Source: a virus (lineage: Duplodnaviria; Caudoviricetes). Taken from it: a DNA stretch of 64,000 nt. The notes beneath the pieces were generated by a model. The model was not told where the DNA came from and made no database searches. It was given only the letters and a program-made list of their open reading frames with translations. Location of the stretch: the IMG/VR virus record IMGVR_UViG_3300031994_000079, positions 1-64,000 of that record; one strand, 5' to 3'. Below, one piece after another: positions 1,943 through 58,082 of this stretch (within the stretch, counting starts at the first letter, position 1; every line of letters begins with the position of its first letter). Position numbers and translations under genes: made by a program.

Positions 1943-2227
1943 ATGAGCGATAGTTATGAATTTACTTTGCATAATCCTTTGTCCAAAGAAGATTGGGATA
2001 AACTGACAGATGTTGAACTTGAAAAAACGGAGCATATTTGGTTTGAAACGCCAAGTGGAAAAAAGGTTGATTATATTCCGGCAAAGGCACTTAACAAGCT
2101 AAGGACAGAGATAGAGGATTATATAACACATTCCCCATATATAAAATCTTTTATAGATTGTTGCCGTTTAAGGGATGATGTAATGCGGATTATCGACAAA
2201 TACAGAAATGAGGTGAGTAAGTTTTAA
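1943..2227 (+). CDS. Hypothetical protein
   Basis: ORF track; RBS AAGGAG. Confidence 0.7.
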   Translation: MSDSYEFTLHNPLSKEDWDKLTDVELEKTEHIWFETPSGKKVDYIPAKALNKLRTEIEDYITHSPYIKSFIDCCRLRDDVMRIIDKYRNEVSKF

Positions 2228-2237
2228 AAATTACCTG

Positions 2238-2266
2238 TTGTATAAAGAACGTAAATATGTTATAGT
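2238..2266 (+). promoter_or_regulatory. Sigma70-type promoter with extended -10
   Basis: TTGTAT-17 bp-TATAGT with TG at -15/-14. Confidence 0.7.
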
Positions 2267-2289
2267 ATATTTAGAAAGCGAGTGAGACA

Positions 2290-2628
2290 GTGAACAGACC
2301 TACAAGATTTTATTCCAATAGACAAGAAAAATCAGTAGCGAAAGCATTAAATGGTAAAAAGATAGCAAATAGCGGGGCTACGAGATTTGGTAAGGGGGAT
2401 GTAGATACAGACCTATTTCTTATAGAATGTAAGACTTGTATGTCCGATAAGCAATCATTCAGTATTAAGAAAGATTGGATAGATAAGAATAGAGAAGAAG
2501 CATTTGCCATGAATAAACCTTATTCAACAGTATGTTTTAATTTTGGACCTAATAGTGAAAACTATTATGTTATAGATGAACGGTTGTTCAAGACACTAAA
2601 TGATTATCTGAAAGGAGAAAAGGAATGA
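2290..2628 (+). CDS. Holliday junction resolvase, PD-(D/E)XK type
   Basis: E...(SGA)...GDV...LIECK motif typical of phage Hjc-like resolvases. Confidence 0.8.
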   Translation: MNRPTRFYSNRQEKSVAKALNGKKIANSGATRFGKGDVDTDLFLIECKTCMSDKQSFSIKKDWIDKNREEAFAMNKPYSTVCFNFGPNSENYYVIDERLFKTLNDYLKGEKE

Positions 2629-3026
2629 AGAAATTAACAGCAGAGTTAAAAGATTACAAGAAGATGATTGAGGCTGATACGTTGACTATTGAAAAGCCGG
2701 ACGTAGAGTTTGTTAAGTCATGGCTTGATGCTAAGATTGAGTACATGGTAGAGCTTGATAGGTTAGCGAGAATATATGACTTCGATTTGTGTTGGGGTGA
2801 GTATGGCAAAACAGAGCCTTATAGCTATGATGTTGAGATTGGCGTTTGTAGCTCAAATAGAATGTATAAGAAGGAAATTCATATTAACAGGGGTATAGAA
2901 TTGTTAGCTGATATTCTTGGTGAGACGTTAAGCCGTACCAATAGAAAAGATGAGACTTATCCTTATGAGTACAGCTTCATGTACAATGGTTATAGAATAT
3001 TTCAGATAAGTAAGGAGGAGATTTGA
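2625..3026 (+). CDS. Hypothetical protein
   Basis: ORF track; ATGA overlap, RBS AAGGAG. Confidence 0.75.
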   Translation: MKKLTAELKDYKKMIEADTLTIEKPDVEFVKSWLDAKIEYMVELDRLARIYDFDLCWGEYGKTEPYSYDVEIGVCSSNRMYKKEIHINRGIELLADILGETLSRTNRKDETYPYEYSFMYNGYRIFQISKEEI

Positions 3027-3027
3027 T

Positions 3028-3315
3028 ATGGATAAGTATAGATGGTTACGTAGCGGATTACATAGAGGAGATAGAGTAAGAATACAGGAGAGTATGCTCA
3101 TCACAGGTAATGGTAAGAGACTTATAAAAACCGAATATGTTGATGAGACAGAACGTGGTATAAGGTTGAGATTATTCTTTGAGCCTGGTCCGTGTACAGA
3201 AGACCTGAAATGGTATTATGATGTATTTATAGCTTGGCCAGAGTTATATTGTGGTAATATAAGATTAAAGACTTTTGATGGTAGAGATATACGTGCTGAA
3301 AGGTTACATGTATGA
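3028..3315 (+). CDS. Hypothetical protein
   Basis: ORF track; RBS AAGGAGG. Confidence 0.75.
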   Translation: MDKYRWLRSGLHRGDRVRIQESMLITGNGKRLIKTEYVDETERGIRLRLFFEPGPCTEDLKWYYDVFIAWPELYCGNIRLKTFDGRDIRAERLHV

Positions 3316-3689
3316 AGCCAACATATGAATTATTCACAGGCAAGGACTTAGAGATAGCGGAACTTATACAGCAGAGAAGATTCCAAATACTTATTCATTC
3401 CTGTATTTATTATCAGTTTAATGGTAATTTAATATCTGATAAACAGTTTGATAGTTGGGCGAGAGAACTTGCCCAACTTCAACTTGATTATCCAGAAATT
3501 GCAAAGCAAGTATTATATGCCGAAGAGTTTGACGGTTTTGATGGCACTACAGGTTTTGATTTACCTTTAGAGAATGAGTGGGTAATGAAAAAAGCTCAGA
3601 AGCTAATGGGTAAATCTGTACCTAAGAAGAAAGAAGTTAAGAAAGGAAGTCTGTTTGAAGTTAAGAGAAAACCTGGTCGTTTGTTCTGA
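3312..3689 (+). CDS. Stand-alone NAD-dependent DNA ligase N-terminal (domain Ia)-like protein
   Basis: IHSCIYYQ..NLISDKQFDSWARELAQLQLDYPE resembles LigA H...YY..D.P.ISD..YD.L..EL..LE..YPE; no adenylation domain follows. Confidence 0.7.
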   Translation: MKPTYELFTGKDLEIAELIQQRRFQILIHSCIYYQFNGNLISDKQFDSWARELAQLQLDYPEIAKQVLYAEEFDGFDGTTGFDLPLENEWVMKKAQKLMGKSVPKKKEVKKGSLFEVKRKPGRLF

Positions 3690-3717
3690 CTTCATATAAG
3701 ACGATTTAAGACGATTT

Positions 3718-4728
3718 ATGTTGAATATAGTACATAACTACACTCACACGTTAAAAGCTCTTAAAACGCTTGAATATGCGTTTACAGAGCTATCGGAGAA
3801 GCATGTAAATAAGTTAGAATTATCAATGATATATGAGCCACTTATAAATCTGTTCCAACAGTATGGGGAAATAGTTATTGATAATCTCAATTTATATATA
3901 CTGCCTTTAGAATTTAAACATCTTAAAAATTTACCGAAGAATGATAGGATTATGGTTGTTTGTGCTTCAGGTGGTAAAGACAGCACGGCAGTTGCAAAGT
4001 TATATAAAGACAGAGGTTATAGAGTTATCCTATATCATATGAAAGGCATAAATAAAGTATATCAGGATGAATATAAGGCAGTTGATTGCATATCAGCATG
4101 GTTAAAATGCGAATATCATATAGAGGAAGTAAAGCTAACAGGTACTCATGATTGGGTAGAACATCCAATGAAAAATTATATGATTGCCAATGGTGCTATA
4201 CAATATTGTATTGACAATCATCTTCCATTAAATATAGCATTTGGTAATTATGATAGTTCAAGACTTGAAGATATGGATTTTGAAATAGATGCTGGTGATA
4301 GTAGGGATATGTGGGATATATATGAGCTGATAGTTGGAAATGAAATTCCAAATTTCAAAATACATACACCATTACAAAGTATTATGGACACATATGACGT
4401 TCTATTGTATAATCAAGGTTTATTTGAAGCCTGTATATCTTGTATGTCACCGTATAGATTTAGAGAGCATTGGAAACAGCGGACAGAGAATAAATATGGT
4501 GTACAGTTGATGAAACACAGATGTGGCTGTTGTTATAAATGCTGTCTTGAATATATGGTGCTTGCAGATAAAGGATATATAGAATGTAATCAGGAATATT
4601 ATATGCATTGTTTTGAAATCCTTAAAAAGACAGCTAAAAAAGAAACAAAAATTAGGAAACCTAAAACAGATGAAATTTGGAATAGATATATGTGGTATCC
4701 TATGAGTAAGTCACATATGCAATTTTAA
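3718..4728 (+). CDS. QueC-like PP-loop ATPase (7-cyano-7-deazaguanine synthase family)
   Basis: SGGKDS PP-loop, HPMKN (cf. VPxRN), SC...CGCCYKC zinc cluster near the C-terminus. Confidence 0.7.
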   Translation: MLNIVHNYTHTLKALKTLEYAFTELSEKHVNKLELSMIYEPLINLFQQYGEIVIDNLNLYILPLEFKHLKNLPKNDRIMVVCASGGKDSTAVAKLYKDRGYRVILYHMKGINKVYQDEYKAVDCISAWLKCEYHIEEVKLTGTHDWVEHPMKNYMIANGAIQYCIDNHLPLNIAFGNYDSSRLEDMDFEIDAGDSRDMWDIYELIVGNEIPNFKIHTPLQSIMDTYDVLLYNQGLFEACISCMSPYRFREHWKQRTENKYGVQLMKHRCGCCYKCCLEYMVLADKGYIECNQEYYMHCFEILKKTAKKETKIRKPKTDEIWNRYMWYPMSKSHMQF

Positions 4729-53457: not shown

Positions 53458-54087
53458 GTGAATGAAGAAATCTTCGGACAAAGATATGCAGACAGACGTA
53501 CACATAGGTCAGGCGTATTATTAGAGTACGATAGCAAGTACAAAACATATCTTCTTGAATCCCAAGATGGTAAAACATTCAATATAACATCAGCACAATT
53601 CAATAAGAATTGGAAACTTACTGATGAAGTAGCAGAAGTAGAACCAATAGAAGCTGAACAGGCAGAAGTTGGTGATAAACGCTACAAAGGACCATCAGAA
53701 GAACAGAAAGACGAGCTGAATAAGATATTGGAAACATTCTTTTTAATCGGCAAAGAGTATGTAGATGAATTTCAAAATGAAATAATCACTATAAAGCCAG
53801 AGCCGTATAAGAGAAGATTTTTGATGAAAGTCAGACATCATACAGTATTTATAATGGATTGTATGTTGAGACGGAGAAATTGCAGAGTATGGTTAAGAGA
53901 GTATATAAGCAGTTTAATGTCTTGGACAGTTAAGCCAATATCAATTAAGCGTTATCCTGGTACTAATATGAATACAGCAGTAGAGTTTCCGCTTGAAAAT
54001 CTTAAAGAAGTGTTAGATGATTTAACAGCAGTTGTAATTCAAGATATGACAGAAATGGAGGAAAAAAGAAATGGGGTGATAAAGTGA
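53458..54087 (+). CDS. Hypothetical protein
   Basis: GTG start, RBS AAGGAGG, own extended -10 promoter. Confidence 0.8.
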   Translation: MNEEIFGQRYADRRTHRSGVLLEYDSKYKTYLLESQDGKTFNITSAQFNKNWKLTDEVAEVEPIEAEQAEVGDKRYKGPSEEQKDELNKILETFFLIGKEYVDEFQNEIITIKPEPYKRRFLMKVRHHTVFIMDCMLRRRNCRVWLREYISSLMSWTVKPISIKRYPGTNMNTAVEFPLENLKEVLDDLTAVVIQDMTEMEEKRNGVIK

Positions 54088-54821
54088 GATATGCAGATGG
54101 TCAATATAGAGAAAAACTTTATACAGTATATATGCATATCACACCAAATAATAAGAGTTATGTAGGTATAACTTGTCAATCACTTGAATGTAGGTGGAAT
54201 GATGGAGATGGTTATAAACATCAGAGATTATTTTGGCGAGCAATTCAAAAGTATGGTTGGGAAAATATAAAGCATATAGAATTGTTTAATGGTTTGTCTT
54301 TTGAAGATGCAAGTAATATTGAAAAAGATTTAATTAGACAGTTTGAATCTAATAATCCAAAATATGGATATAATTTGACAGATGGTGGTGAAGGTATGTC
54401 AGGTTATAAGTTTACAGCAGAGCAGTTAGCTTGGCGTAGTAAAGTTAGTACTGGTAGAAAACATACACAAGCTACAAAAGATAAATTGTCAAAGATGAAG
54501 AAAGGTTCAAAATTAAATCTTACAGATGAACAAAGACAGGCTTGTGCTGAAAGAGGTAGAATACAAGGTATAAAGAATAAAGGTCGTAAGCATACAGAAG
54601 AAGAATGTAATAAGATAAAAGAAGCAGTACATAAGCGTTATGCAAACGGCGGTATAGCACCACATTGTAAACCTCATACTGAGGAGACAAAACGTAAGAT
54701 AAGCGAGAAGCAAAAAGGACGAGTTATATCAGAAGAACACAGAGAAAAATTAAGACAAGCCGCGTTAAAACAGTGGCAAAGACAAAAAGGAGGAATTAAA
54801 AATGAGATTCAGTTACAATGA
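54084..54821 (+). CDS. Free-standing GIY-YIG homing endonuclease with NUMOD3 repeats
   Basis: VYMH...YVGIT, R W, E...I, GYNLTDGGEG, repeated H(T/S)EE.K.K(I/L)S. Confidence 0.92.
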   Translation: MRYADGQYREKLYTVYMHITPNNKSYVGITCQSLECRWNDGDGYKHQRLFWRAIQKYGWENIKHIELFNGLSFEDASNIEKDLIRQFESNNPKYGYNLTDGGEGMSGYKFTAEQLAWRSKVSTGRKHTQATKDKLSKMKKGSKLNLTDEQRQACAERGRIQGIKNKGRKHTEEECNKIKEAVHKRYANGGIAPHCKPHTEETKRKISEKQKGRVISEEHREKLRQAALKQWQRQKGGIKNEIQLQ

Positions 54822-55449
54822 GGCAGATAATTACGGTAGCAATGGTGGTAGTAGTTTTTTCACATTACGTGATGATGGTGATACAGCAAGAGTACGTATT
54901 ATGTATGGCAGTATTGATGATGTAGAAGGTCTTTCAGTACATGAGATAGACCTGAACGATAAGAAAAGGTATGTAAACTGCATCAGAGAATATAATGACC
55001 CGATAGATATGTGTCCTCTTTGCAAAGCAAACTACAAGATACAGGCTAAGTTGTTTGTACCGTTGTATAATGAAGATACAGGCGAAACACTTGTTTGGGA
55101 GAGGGGTAAGAAGTTCTTTGGTAAGATTTCAGATTTGTGTACAAGATATGATAACCTCGTTTCAAGAGTGTTTGAGATTGTAAGACATGGCAAGCCGAAA
55201 GATACAGGTACAACATATGAGATATGGCCTGTAGGTGATAAAGACAATACAACATTTGAAGATTTGCCTGAACCTGTAGATGTTATGAAAGGTATTGTGC
55301 TTGATAAGACAGCAGATGAACTTGACTATTATCTGAGGTATCATGAGTTTCCCGATAATGATGCTCCTGCGAGAGAAGAAGCACCGAGACGCAGAGAGCA
55401 GTCAGTACCTATGAGAAGAACTCCTGCGAGAGGAAATGAGGCATTCTAA
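54802..55449 (+). CDS. Single-stranded DNA-binding protein (gp32-like, Zn-binding)
   Basis: FFTLRDDGD.ARVR, H...C...CPLC, VWERG; lies between primase and polymerase. Confidence 0.75.
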   Translation: MRFSYNEADNYGSNGGSSFFTLRDDGDTARVRIMYGSIDDVEGLSVHEIDLNDKKRYVNCIREYNDPIDMCPLCKANYKIQAKLFVPLYNEDTGETLVWERGKKFFGKISDLCTRYDNLVSRVFEIVRHGKPKDTGTTYEIWPVGDKDNTTFEDLPEPVDVMKGIVLDKTADELDYYLRYHEFPDNDAPAREEAPRRREQSVPMRRTPARGNEAF

Positions 55450-56981
55450 TGGCATTGATAAATATACCTAAGCGAAGCACAAAAGAAAAAGATTTGGCAC
55501 TTGCTAAGAAGTCAAATTCTGTTCAGAAAGCTATCCCCACTGTAAAGGGTGGGGGTAGCATTATTAACAAGATACAAACTATCCAAGCATTAGTTGAGAC
55601 TAAACTTGGTAAATATAAAGATGAATATATTATCATTCGTGATGAAGCCACGTTGATTGATTATATAGATGTATGTATAGAGAATAGTATAATATCTCTT
55701 GATACAGAGACAACCGGGTTAGACCCGTTGCTTGATGAGATAGTTGGTATATGTATCTATACACCGGGTGAGAAAGGTGCATATATTCCTATCAATCATG
55801 TTTCATATATAACATTAGAGCGAGTAGCTAACCAGTTAGATATAGATTTTTTGAATGAACAGTTTACAAGGTTATATGATTGTGAATTAGATAGCATAAT
55901 GTTTAATGCCAAGTTTGATATAAGATTTATGAGAAACAAAGTTGGTGTTAAGAATATTTATTGTACATGGGATAGTTATTTAGCTCAAAGGTGTTTGAAT
56001 GAGAATGAGCCACATAATGGTCTTAAATTGTTACATGAGAAGTATGTTCTCAACGGTGAAGGTGATGCGTGGTCATTCGGTGATTTATTTAAGAATATAT
56101 CATTTTCATATATACCGATTAAGACAGCATATCTGTATGCGGCACGTGACCCGGTTATTACATATGAGCTTTATGATTATCAGAGGAAATATCTGAAAGA
56201 AGATACCGATAGGGAAGATTTAAGAAATGTGTATTGGATATTTAAGAACATAGAAATGCCGTGTGTATCTGTAGTAGCCGATATGGAAGATACTGGTATA
56301 GAGTTCGATTTCGATTATAATGAGAAGTTGAAAGAGAAGTACCATAAGTTATTGGAAGAACGTATACAGAGCTTTAACGAAATGTGCGGTATGTATTCTA
56401 AAGAAATACAAGAGTATAGAGACACAACAGGTTCAAGTTGTAAATTAGATGACCCTATAAATATAAAGTCACCAACACAGCTTGCAATACTTCTCTATGA
56501 TATAATGGGATGTGAAATACCAAAAGATAAAAAGACCAAGAAAGAAGTACGGTCAACAAATGAAGAAACATTGAAGTCAATGGATAATCCTATTGCAAAA
56601 GCAATATTAGATTATAGAGAGTTTTCCACTATTGTAGATACATTCATAGATAAGTTGCCTGAATGTGTCAATCCTAATGATGGTCGTATTCATTGTCAGT
56701 TTAATCAGTACGGTGCAAGAACAGGTAGATTTAGTAGTGAGAACCCTAATATGCAGAACATACCTTCTCATAATAAAGAGATAAGACAGATGTTTAAAGC
56801 AACAGATGATGAATCTATTTTGGAAACAGAGAATGATATATTTATGGTGGACAAATTTGATGAAGTATACACATCTAATGGTTGGGTTAGTTGTAGCAAA
56901 TTAAAAATCGGTGATGATTTAGACGGTTGTATAATCAAATCAATAAAACTCCAAGATGATAAGTATATTATAGGTGTATAG
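55449..56981 (+). CDS. polA: DNA polymerase family A, N-terminal part (3'-5' exonuclease + thumb) with ~59-aa Hint-like tail
   Basis: LDTETTGL, FNAKFD, YAARD, RTGRFSSENPNMQNIP; non-polymerase tail from about 56802. Confidence 0.92.
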   Translation: MALINIPKRSTKEKDLALAKKSNSVQKAIPTVKGGGSIINKIQTIQALVETKLGKYKDEYIIIRDEATLIDYIDVCIENSIISLDTETTGLDPLLDEIVGICIYTPGEKGAYIPINHVSYITLERVANQLDIDFLNEQFTRLYDCELDSIMFNAKFDIRFMRNKVGVKNIYCTWDSYLAQRCLNENEPHNGLKLLHEKYVLNGEGDAWSFGDLFKNISFSYIPIKTAYLYAARDPVITYELYDYQRKYLKEDTDREDLRNVYWIFKNIEMPCVSVVADMEDTGIEFDFDYNEKLKEKYHKLLEERIQSFNEMCGMYSKEIQEYRDTTGSSCKLDDPINIKSPTQLAILLYDIMGCEIPKDKKTKKEVRSTNEETLKSMDNPIAKAILDYREFSTIVDTFIDKLPECVNPNDGRIHCQFNQYGARTGRFSSENPNMQNIPSHNKEIRQMFKATDDESILETENDIFMVDKFDEVYTSNGWVSCSKLKIGDDLDGCIIKSIKLQDDKYIIGV

Positions 56982-57032
56982 ATTTTTCACAACAAGTCAC
57001 AAGCAACTTATCAGAGGAAAATATTGGAAGAA

Positions 57033-57116
57033 ATGAAAAAAGGTTATTGTATGTTTAGGAGAAGAAAATATACTTTTGACATACATTGGTATAGAAAGGG
57101 AGGTGATGCCAAATGA
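57033..57116 (+). CDS. 27-aa basic ORF inside the split polA locus
   Basis: MKKGYCMFRRRKYTFDIHWYRKGGDAK*; its stop overlaps the next ATG (ATGA). Confidence 0.4.
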   Translation: MKKGYCMFRRRKYTFDIHWYRKGGDAK

Positions 57117-57172
57117 AAAAGTCGATAAGAGTTAGAAAAAATTATGTTCTAATGTCTGCCGACTATTCTTAG
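57113..57172 (+). CDS. polA: polA fragment 2 carrying the start of motif A (MKKSIRVRKNYVLMSADYS*)
   Basis: Strong RBS GGGAGGTG; YVLMSADYS is the polymerase motif A with catalytic Asp; ends in TAG at 57170-57172. Confidence 0.8.
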   Translation: MKKSIRVRKNYVLMSADYS

Positions 57173-57173
57173 G

Positions 57174-58082
57174 TCACAGCAAGAGCCAAAGGTCATGACT
57201 ATGATGTGTCAAGACCCGAAGATGATAAAAGCGTATCAAGAAGGGAGAGATTTATATGCGGAGATTGCGTCACTTTCTTTCAATACAACTTATGATAATT
57301 GCCTTGAATTTAGACCCGACGGCACTACTAACAGAGAAGGTAAAGAGCGTAGGAGCCAGGCAAAATCTATATTATTGGGCGTTCTCTACGGCAGAGGTGT
57401 CCCAAGTATTGCAGAACAGCTTGGAACAACTACGAAAAAGGCTCAAACAATCAAAGATAGTGTAATGAAAGGTTTTCCTGCTATTGAAAAATTTGAACAG
57501 GATAGTTTAAGAATGGCAGAAGATTTAGGATATGTAACTACATTGTGGGGTAGAAAGAGAAGATTACCAGATTTACAATTAGATGAGTTTGAGTTTAAAT
57601 GGAAAGATGGTGCACCACAAGATAATGATGTACTGGATTTTGATGAAGAAATAGATTATAATGTACCTATAGAAACGCAGAAAAAATATCTTAGGTTATT
57701 AAGTCAAGCAAGATTCGGTGAGAAGCGTAAGATATTTGAAAAAGCTAACGCAGAAGGAATATGGATAATAGATAACGGGGCGAAGATAGCAGATGCACAA
57801 AGGCAGTGCGTAAATGCAAGAATACAAGGTTCAGCCGCAGATATGTCAAAGTTAGCTATGATAAAAATAGGTAATGATAAGATATTAAAAGAATTAGGTT
57901 TCAGAATGTTAGTGCCAGTACATGATGAAATCATAGCTGAATGTCCTAAAGAACATGCAAAGAAATGTGTAGAGAGGTTTTCACAGTTAATGTCAGAAGC
58001 ACCAGGTGAAAAGTTTACAATACCTATTAAGTGTGATGTAGATGTAACAGAATGTTGGTATGGAGATAAAGTTAAAATTTAG
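57174..58082 (+). CDS. polA: polA fragment 3 (rest of palm and fingers), in +1 frame relative to fragment 2
   Basis: SQQEPKV..., motif B RSQAKSILLGVLYG, NARIQGSAADMSK, motif C VPVHDE. Confidence 0.9.
   Translation, partial: SQQEPKVMTMMCQDPKMIKAYQEGRDLYAEIASLSFNTTYDNCLEFRPDGTTNREGKERRSQAKSILLGVLYGRGVPSIAEQLGTTTKKAQTIKDSVMKGFPAIEKFEQDSLRMAEDLGYVTTLWGRKRRLPDLQLDEFEFKWKDGAPQDNDVLDFDEEIDYNVPIETQKKYLRLLSQARFGEKRKIFEKANAEGIWIIDNGAKIADAQRQCVNARIQGSAADMSKLAMIKIGNDKILKELGFRMLVPVHDEIIAECPKEHAKKCVERFSQLMSEAPGEKFTIPIKCDVDVTECWYGDKVKI

Follow-up and report, generated by a model that had tools for sequence, protein, structure and literature searches.

How can a phage rely on a DNA polymerase whose gene is broken immediately ahead of catalytic motif A? 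The question is raised by the family A DNA polymerase gene (polA) in a stretch of 64,000 nucleotides (nt), hereafter the window, which covers the first 64 kb of a phage genome that is complete at 72.9 kb and has terminal repeats (IMG/VR record IMGVR_UViG_3300031994_000079). A first, sequence-only reading had taken the locus for a two-chain polymerase held together by a non-splicing clasp derived from a split intein. Our own answer, which we consider moderately probable as a whole, is that a nuclease cassette split the only DNA polymerase of this phage, that the N-terminal fragment (N-fragment) ends in a tail that is a dead relic of a Hint (intein-type) domain, and that the two chains assemble non-covalently, with the tail and a short leader of the C-terminal fragment (C-fragment) likely docking.

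The pieces lie where the sequence-only reading had put them, and can be read in the DNA: the N-fragment leaves the polymerase at MFKA and runs into a tail of 59 amino acids (aa), and the C-fragment restarts behind a strong ribosome-binding site (RBS). The locus is composed as follows.

55449..56807, plus strand: PolA N-fragment proper, with the 3'-5' exonuclease domain and the initial part of the polymerase domain, up to MFKA-TD (Pfam, alignment with the phiCTP1 polymerase, collinearity with unsplit relatives).
56802..56981, plus strand: C-terminal extension of the N-fragment (the tail), 59 aa and TAG (family alignments, Hint profile matches, hhalign, AlphaFold (AF2) models, inteins as best structural matches).
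56982..57116, plus strand: 3' end of the cassette's gene for a GIY-YIG homing endonuclease, of which the last 44 codons are left (BLASTP match to the C-terminus of the nuclease of the related locus L036; intact GIY-YIG genes at this place in relatives).
57098..57106, plus strand: Shine-Dalgarno sequence GGGAGGTGA of the C-fragment (read from the sequence; kept in other cassettes).
57113..57142, plus strand: N-terminal extension of the C-fragment (the leader), ATG and nine codons, net charge +5 (read from the sequence; basic in 29 of 29 cassettes).
57143..57169, plus strand: motif A strand YVLMSADYS, which includes the catalytic Asp, in the copy that the cassette carries (placed inside the cassette by comparison of a filled and an empty site, L054 and L053).
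57170..57176, plus strand: 7-nt insert containing a stop, made up of TAG, G and TCA, the Ser codon on which the ribosome would land (it would take off from the Ser codon TCT at 57167-69).
57177..58082, plus strand: remaining PolA C-fragment, with the rest of motif A and motifs B and C (Pfam DNA_pol_A positions 160-380; 51% identity to the phiCTP1 polymerase).

The open reading frame (ORF) of the N-fragment, 55449-56981, encodes Pfam DNA_pol_A_exo1 and positions 9-154 of DNA_pol_A, which is the first 40% of the polymerase domain, and 57174-58082 encodes positions 160-380 (of 381). The polymerase of Clostridium phage phiCTP1 aligns to both fragments, with 42% identity to the N-fragment and 51% to the C-fragment, and has only five residues at the split versus about 375 nt in the window. 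The homology of the N-fragment ends at about 56807, because unsplit relatives go from MF[VK]A-[ST]DG directly into the motif A strand; the 59 tail codons (56802-56978) are closed by TAG at 56979-81. In PolA structures, the split presumably falls in the turn between the strand ending in R-x-x-F-x-A and the motif A strand.

The C-fragment restarts at the ATG at 57113 with MKKSIRVRKN-YVLMSADYS, the 10-aa basic leader (57113-57142) being joined to the motif A strand (57143-57169). In the sequence-only reading, this restart was correctly described with its RBS, its ATG and its basic leader, but the TAG at 57170, after 19 codons, had been overlooked. The restarted ORF closes at this stop (57170-72), and the polymerase resumes in the +1 frame from 57174. 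Due to the stop and the change of frame, the gene consists of three reading pieces unless ribosomes hop TCT-TAG-G-TCA. An alternative genetic code was considered and rejected, as reading TAG as a residue fails to restore the polymerase frame. Ribosomes would therefore have to hop the 7-nt insert in order to finish the polymerase. All features of a family A polymerase are present in the pieces (exonuclease domain, motifs A, B and C), with motif A whole only if the insert is skipped.

The broken gene is in use. In the complete 72.9-kb genome we found no second DNA polymerase of family A, B or C (PolB, Pol III alpha); there is a single PolA locus, and genes for a clamp, clamp loader, helicase and primase of the phage itself lie near it. 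In the comparison of the split locus L054 with its unsplit relative L053, the ratio of nonsynonymous to synonymous substitution rates (dN/dS) amounted to 0.066 over the N-fragment and 0.008 over the C-fragment. This purifying selection on a split gene, together with the lack of any other A, B or C polymerase in the genome, indicates that the split gene functions.

In order to determine whether the split is peculiar to this assembly, as the sequence-only reading had left to be surveyed, IMG/VR was scanned with the C-fragment. Among the 80 related polA loci obtained, 67 run on without a break, the R-x-M-F motif and Q-Q-E-P being 42 nt apart, and 13 are split at the same site, where they hold 248-2266 nt. 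A second search used the hop alone (Asp-aromatic-Ser, a stop, 1-13 nt, Gln-Gln-Glu-Pro) and identified 30 distinct cassettes in IMG/VR phages, some of them in polymerases with a different flavor of motif A. The tail was present in all 30, in 27 according to a hidden Markov model and in three diverged cases by eye. It is open over 59-75 aa in every one of them, and the basic leader was likewise found in 30 of 30. The RBS of the C-fragment is conserved in other cassettes. The split is thus not unique to the assembly.

A filled and a nearly identical empty site reveal what is inserted. L054 (split) and L053 (unsplit) are 96% identical on both flanks, and L054 has 1041 nt in place of 34 nt. The replaced 34 nt of L053 include the motif A strand, and the cassette therefore brings its own copy of this strand. 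In a tree of C-fragments the split state is scattered, with 11 changes for 14 rows, of which well-supported branches force at least four. Such scatter would fit homing or repeated loss. The split is a mobile cassette, and not damage or chance.

Nuclease genes between the pieces, confirmed by Pfam, were of the GIY-YIG (L018, L036 and others), HNH (L084) and LAGLIDADG (L105) types. In about ten cassettes, that of the window included, the nuclease is wholly or mostly gone, and tail, leader and hop are still kept; in some of these the tail stop abuts or overlaps the start of the C-fragment. The window has retained a 44-codon open stretch (56982-57113), the TGA of which overlaps the ATG of the C-fragment (ATGA). 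The 27-codon ORF that the sequence-only reading had noted here exists (ATG 57033-57116), but it lies within this stretch, which is 41% identical to the last 44 aa of the intact GIY-YIG nuclease of L036 (BLASTP, E 7e-10). The stretch is what is left, at the C-terminus, of a GIY-YIG homing endonuclease that has otherwise been deleted.

Several cassettes hold more than nuclease genes. Between tail and nuclease, L039 carries a PAPS-reductase-like gene (2121-3104; Pfam E 2e-10), and L021 (2960-3667) carries a 236-aa ORF without a Pfam match, which has a matching ORF in L024. In L103 (minus strand, about 2028-4640) the N-fragment is cut again by a free-standing HNH nuclease gene between S-S-S-D-P and N-L-Q-N-I-P-S, the tail is borne by an 82-aa middle piece, and polA consists of at least three protein pieces plus a hop. 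The tail-bearing PolA N-fragment of L122, which is followed by an HNH-like ORF, matches a database protein only if TGA is translated as Trp, and the cassette therefore occurs also in a phage using that code. In cultured phages, a tblastn search with two tails against 50,697 phage records gave nothing useful, and blastn with the junction gave chance matches only. Outside the locus, the window contains a free-standing GIY-YIG nuclease gene with NUMOD3 repeats (54084-54821), located between a gene of unknown function and a gene for a protein resembling single-stranded DNA-binding proteins. Its product is just 23% identical to the cassette nucleases.

What is the tail? It is derived from a Hint domain, and consists of a 14-aa acidic linker, the N-terminal Hint subdomain (from block A on) and the first strands of block F. 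The case rests on the agreement of sequence and structure, since Z scores below 8 would be weak on their own. Searching 1.84 billion representative proteins with a profile built from 13 tails yielded 170 matches at E <= 0.001. All examined matches at protein C-termini were PolA N-fragments. Matches of about 70 aa began at the Met of M-F-x-A and look like gene calls on fragments. The other examined matches were proteins with Pfam PT-HINT, Hint_2 or Intein_splicing domains (E 2.4e-7, 4e-7, 5.4e-6, 6.8e-5, 1.3e-4 and 3.7e-4). Among sequences in the PDB, the best match of the tail profile was a bacterial intein-like (BIL) domain (E 1.7e-4), and with a 41-sequence profile inteins made up 15 of the 26 matches listed. 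Profile-profile alignment (hhalign) paired the tail with the N-terminal end of an intein that lies in a phage protein (94.8% probability, E 5e-8, 58 columns) and with a PT-HINT toxin domain (90.1% probability). Pfam gave no match with the tail of the window alone, and single other members of the family reached only E 0.16-0.18 (Hint_2, Intein_splicing).

The structural models led to the same assignment. AF2 predicted five strands for the tail of the window, with a predicted local distance difference test score (pLDDT) of 84, and seven strands for the 69-aa tail of L108 (pLDDT 90). Aligned against 48,161 PDB chains, the window model had inteins as all of its eight best structural matches, and the L108 model as most of its best thirteen; the inteins matched include PI-SceI, Prp8, MchDnaB-1, gp41-1, the PolII mini-intein and NrdJ-1. 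Superposed on inteins, 45-54 residues fitted with Z 5.0-6.5 and a root-mean-square deviation (rmsd) of 1.1-1.7 A. Intein residue 1 falls on tail residue 15 in either model, and the aligned region extends to about residue 110-127 in inteins of 127-145 residues. The sequence-only reading had likened the tail to intein block A and the start of block F, and the structural alignments give the same mapping. A complete Hint horseshoe (about 130 aa) is absent, as only intein residues 1 to about 53 and a block F strand are superposed; block B, the remainder of block F and block G are gone. The proposal of an intein-derived junction was thus right about Hint ancestry and had missed the flanking mobile cassette, the hop beside the leader, and the fact that only about half of a Hint fold is left.

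Genuine inteins also occur nearby in some relatives. Five PolA N-fragments (P0006, P0045, P0048, P0049 and P0070) carry one 20-30 residues ahead of the tail, inserted in the motif T-G-R-x-S or N-P-N. These inteins begin with Cys-1 and end in His-Asn or Ser-Asn followed by Cys or Thr, and one contains a LAGLIDADG domain. Together with the tail site they make a hot spot of three insertion sites in about 40 codons. The relatives with a genuine intein still have the tail, which is therefore not a misreading of those inteins. We also considered the end of the tail as a duplicate of leader and motif A strand, as hinted at by a MAFFT alignment, and rejected the idea (local alignment score 14.4 versus 13.8 +/- 3.5 for shuffled leaders). 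As an exception, the tails of L050 (3468-3671) and L054 (3461-3667) end in D-Y-S-stop, like the take-off site of the C-fragment.

The junction does not appear to be spliced, either as protein or as RNA. The residue aligned to intein position 1 (tail residue 15) is M in the window and V, E, T, F, I or K in other cassettes. Neither a conserved His nor a Thr-x-x-His of block B was found in 41 aligned tails, and the structural alignments skip block B. Instead of a terminal His-Asn, the leader has K-N in the window and N, Q, S, R, K or D at its end in other cassettes; the +1 residue is Tyr here, and Y, N, K or Q across cassettes, never Cys, Ser or Thr. These checks bear out for the whole family what the sequence-only reading had said of the one tail, that it has neither a Cys/Ser nucleophile nor a His-Asn end. 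With every splicing residue gone and about half of the Hint missing, the tail, judging from its sequence, cannot splice. As for introns, Rfam gave no match at E <= 1 on 56000-58000 and only tRNAs at gathering scores on 13 cassette loci, and an RNA fold at 56790-57180 was no more stable than shuffles (z-score +0.71). From these nulls and the absent residues we infer that neither protein nor RNA splicing acts at the junction, in line with the original hypothesis of a non-splicing clasp.

The tail is nevertheless maintained. In three close pairs its dN/dS was 0.09, 0.09 and 0.23, like that of the adjoining polymerase segments (distant pairs were saturated, with dS > 1, and excluded). These ratios indicate that the tail is under purifying selection as a protein. 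It is also acidic in 29 of 29 cassettes (mean -7, window -8), and the leader is basic in all 29 (mean +3.9, window +5). The polarity of acidic N-piece and basic C-piece is known from several split inteins.

The arrangement Ser-stop-(1-13 nt)-Ser recurs in other cassettes. Leader and putative hop always co-occur, with the leader 9-17 residues ahead of the hop, and no split cassette without a hop was found among the cassettes that would separate the roles of the leader. A distant PolA clade (L121, 4960-5060) has the same tail and leader with a 5-nt hop after D-Y-S-A, from Ala GCC over TA to Ala GCT; the gene caller began this C-fragment at a later Met. In L097, tail and leader share one reading frame. 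In the window (57116-57142), K-K-S-I-R of the leader resembles R-R-S-I-K of the N-terminal extension of T4 gene 60; the likeness could be chance and is too short for homology.

We propose the following course of events. A homing-endonuclease cassette inserted in the turn just ahead of the motif A strand, with the result that the polymerase is made as two proteins. The cassette brings its own repair kit, consisting of a stop after an extension of about 60 aa, a nuclease gene, an RBS and ATG with a basic leader, a copy of motif A, and the hop insert. The extension is a shrunken, catalytically dead piece of a Hint domain, made up of the N-terminal subdomain and the first block F strands. The two chains would then join non-covalently into an active polymerase, in which the acidic Hint relic and the basic leader would most likely dock onto each other or otherwise stabilize the broken palm hairpin. 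Acidic linker and basic leader could prolong this hairpin as a two-chain ribbon, with the Hint relic as a cap. A role of tail and leader as a clasp is plausible.

Some observations weigh against this proposal. The structural scores are modest (Z below 8), and Foldseek ranks inteins and BIL domains first without a match at E <= 0.001. Only about 45-55 of about 130 Hint residues are present, and the tail of the window, with 59 aa the shortest of 29, has one hairpin fewer. As about half of the Hint is gone, tail and 10-aa leader cannot rebuild a whole one, and as AF2 folds the tail alone with confidence, there is no obvious need for a partner strand. The tail also evolves faster than the polymerase core, and its mean pairwise identity is 0.31, versus 0.63 in the motif A strand. 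In phage Aeh1, whose split NrdA is the one analogue that has been tested, the enzyme is reported to be inactive without its extensions, but its halves still bind (10.1101/2022.08.31.505936). Finally, the leader may, by analogy with T4 gene 60, serve the hop instead of, or besides, docking, since the whole 19-residue chain sits in the ribosomal tunnel at take-off.

These points lend themselves to other explanations. The tail could be a tolerated relic without a role in assembly, the halves binding via their own palm interface and the tail being kept for its stop codon, the expression context or, for example, stability of the C-terminus. Its fast divergence, the reduction to half a Hint, and the fact that the Aeh1 NrdA extensions are dispensable for binding would all suit such a relic. 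A mere leftover would hardly be expected to stay open over 59-75 aa in all 30 cassettes, including the roughly ten that have lost the nuclease, to have a dN/dS of 0.09-0.23, to be always acidic opposite an always basic leader, or to be modeled by AF2 with high confidence, and we regard this explanation as unlikely. Less likely again is that the leader is mainly a nascent-peptide or start signal for the hop 9-17 residues further on, as in T4 gene 60, with the tail serving separately in folding or in the mobile element and no clasp at all. The constant company of leader and hop, the 19-aa chain wholly inside the ribosome at take-off, the known role of the gene 60 extension, and the [KR][KR]-S-I-[KR] pattern common to both (our own reading, and possibly chance) speak for a signal of this kind. 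It would, however, make the charge complementarity of tail and leader a coincidence; leader and tail evolve at about the same rate, and no hop-less split cassette is at hand to part the two roles.

A covalent junction, whether through protein trans-splicing of a non-canonical kind or through the removal of an unrecognized intron from the RNA, has in its favor that phage polymerase genes often contain introns and inteins and that some relatives carry genuine inteins 20-30 aa upstream. We consider it very improbable in view of the variable residue at intein position 1, the +1 residues Y, N, K or Q, the missing TxxH and His-Asn, the loss of half the fold, the Rfam and RNA folding results, the selection on the tail as a protein, and the strong RBS and ATG ahead of the C-fragment. 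Just as improbable is a decaying pseudogene or an assembly artifact in a phage that depends on the polymerase of its host. A deleted nuclease, the shortest tail of the family and an in-frame stop in motif A might give this impression, but the three-part layout is repeated in 30 independent contigs, the catalytic motifs are all intact, purifying selection in split lineages is strong, and the genome is complete, with its own clamp, clamp loader, helicase and primase near polA. We therefore retain the proposal of a cassette-split polymerase assembled from two chains. A bolder version of it, which we put forward tentatively and with somewhat more doubt than belief, sees mobile cassettes with a portable split-and-repair kit, in which a dead half-intein acts as heterodimerization clasp and the leader acts both as docking strand and as nascent-peptide signal for the hop.

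Homing endonucleases usually spare the host gene by hiding in introns or inteins. To our knowledge, only two gene-splitting elements with helper extensions have been described, MobA in a topoisomerase gene and MobE in an NrdA gene. The polA cassette would be a third and widespread case, in a replicative family A polymerase of uncultured phages, with a helper extension that can be traced to an intein.

In phage T4, mobA splits topoisomerase genes 39 and 60; gene 39 has a C-terminal extension of about 44 aa, and gene 60 has gained an N-terminal extension, a cassette-borne homologous stretch and a 50-nt bypass (10.1101/2022.08.31.505936). The gene 60 extension works in the ribosomal tunnel, where it promotes bypass and its residues affect it, and the extensions persist where the MobA nuclease has been exchanged or lost (10.1101/2022.08.31.505936). 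The likeness to the polA cassette is extensive. In both, the gene of an essential enzyme is interrupted next to a catalytic acidic motif by a mobile nuclease cassette, the first ORF has an in-frame C-terminal extension, and the second has an N-terminal extension, the cassette's own version of the host stretch that was deleted, and a bypass led by a stop, here read from the sequence; in both, the nuclease is swapped or lost while extensions and bypass remain. The polA cassette thus has all the hallmarks of a MobA-type cassette (both extensions conserved, a copy of host sequence, mobility and the layout of a stop-led bypass), the bypass being predicted. It differs in the host gene, a family A polymerase, in the length of the bypass (4-16 nt versus 50) and of the leader (10 aa versus about 30), and in a C-terminal extension that is recognizably Hint-derived, which has not been reported for MobA.

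The second relative is the class of "fractured genes", in which a free-standing gene for a homing endonuclease separates the two halves of a split intein (Dassa et al. 2009, PMC2677866). The gene order is the same, with a Hint part, a free nuclease gene and a C-piece whose start overlaps the nuclease stop, as seen in relatives and as the ATGA remnant in the window; occurrence in phages and GIY-YIG nucleases are also shared (PMC2677866), and gp41-1 of the Dassa et al. set is among the best structural matches of the tail. Those inteins, however, are complete and trans-splicing, whereas the polA tail misses about half the Hint and all catalytic residues, so that tail and leader do not look like halves competent for trans-splicing. 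The host genes in PMC2677866 include no family A polymerase, and the fractured loci are without a translational hop. Split inteins, both natural and engineered, such as Npu DnaE, gp41-1 and NrdJ-1 likewise combine an acidic N-piece with a basic C-piece and share the fold of the N-terminal subdomain (rmsd 1.7-1.9 A). The polA junction differs from them in having no nucleophile, block B, terminal Asn or +1 Cys, Ser or Thr, and in a C-piece of 10 aa versus about 35.

In Aeh1 nrdA-a/mobE/nrdA-b and in the split gp43 of T4-like phages, too, a free-standing nuclease splits an essential replication enzyme and two chains work. The cassette-derived extensions of Aeh1 NrdA are required for activity and not for binding (10.1101/2022.08.31.505936). 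Neither a Hint-like extension nor a bypass has been reported for these systems, and their enzymes and split sites are different. In the literature searched, we found no description of a Hint-derived extension on a split PolA.

In its layout, the polA cassette corresponds to the MobA element, with another host gene and a far shorter bypass, and at the same time to a fractured gene whose Hint is truncated and dead. As such, it would provide a concrete intermediate form between inteins that splice and split genes that do not, as well as a small, natural, splicing-dead Hint module that is a candidate protein-association tag. For annotation, it is a warning that such split polA genes are not pseudogenes. 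If the reading of a portable kit is true, intein-based fractured genes and MobA-type elements with their extensions and bypass would be stages of one evolutionary route.

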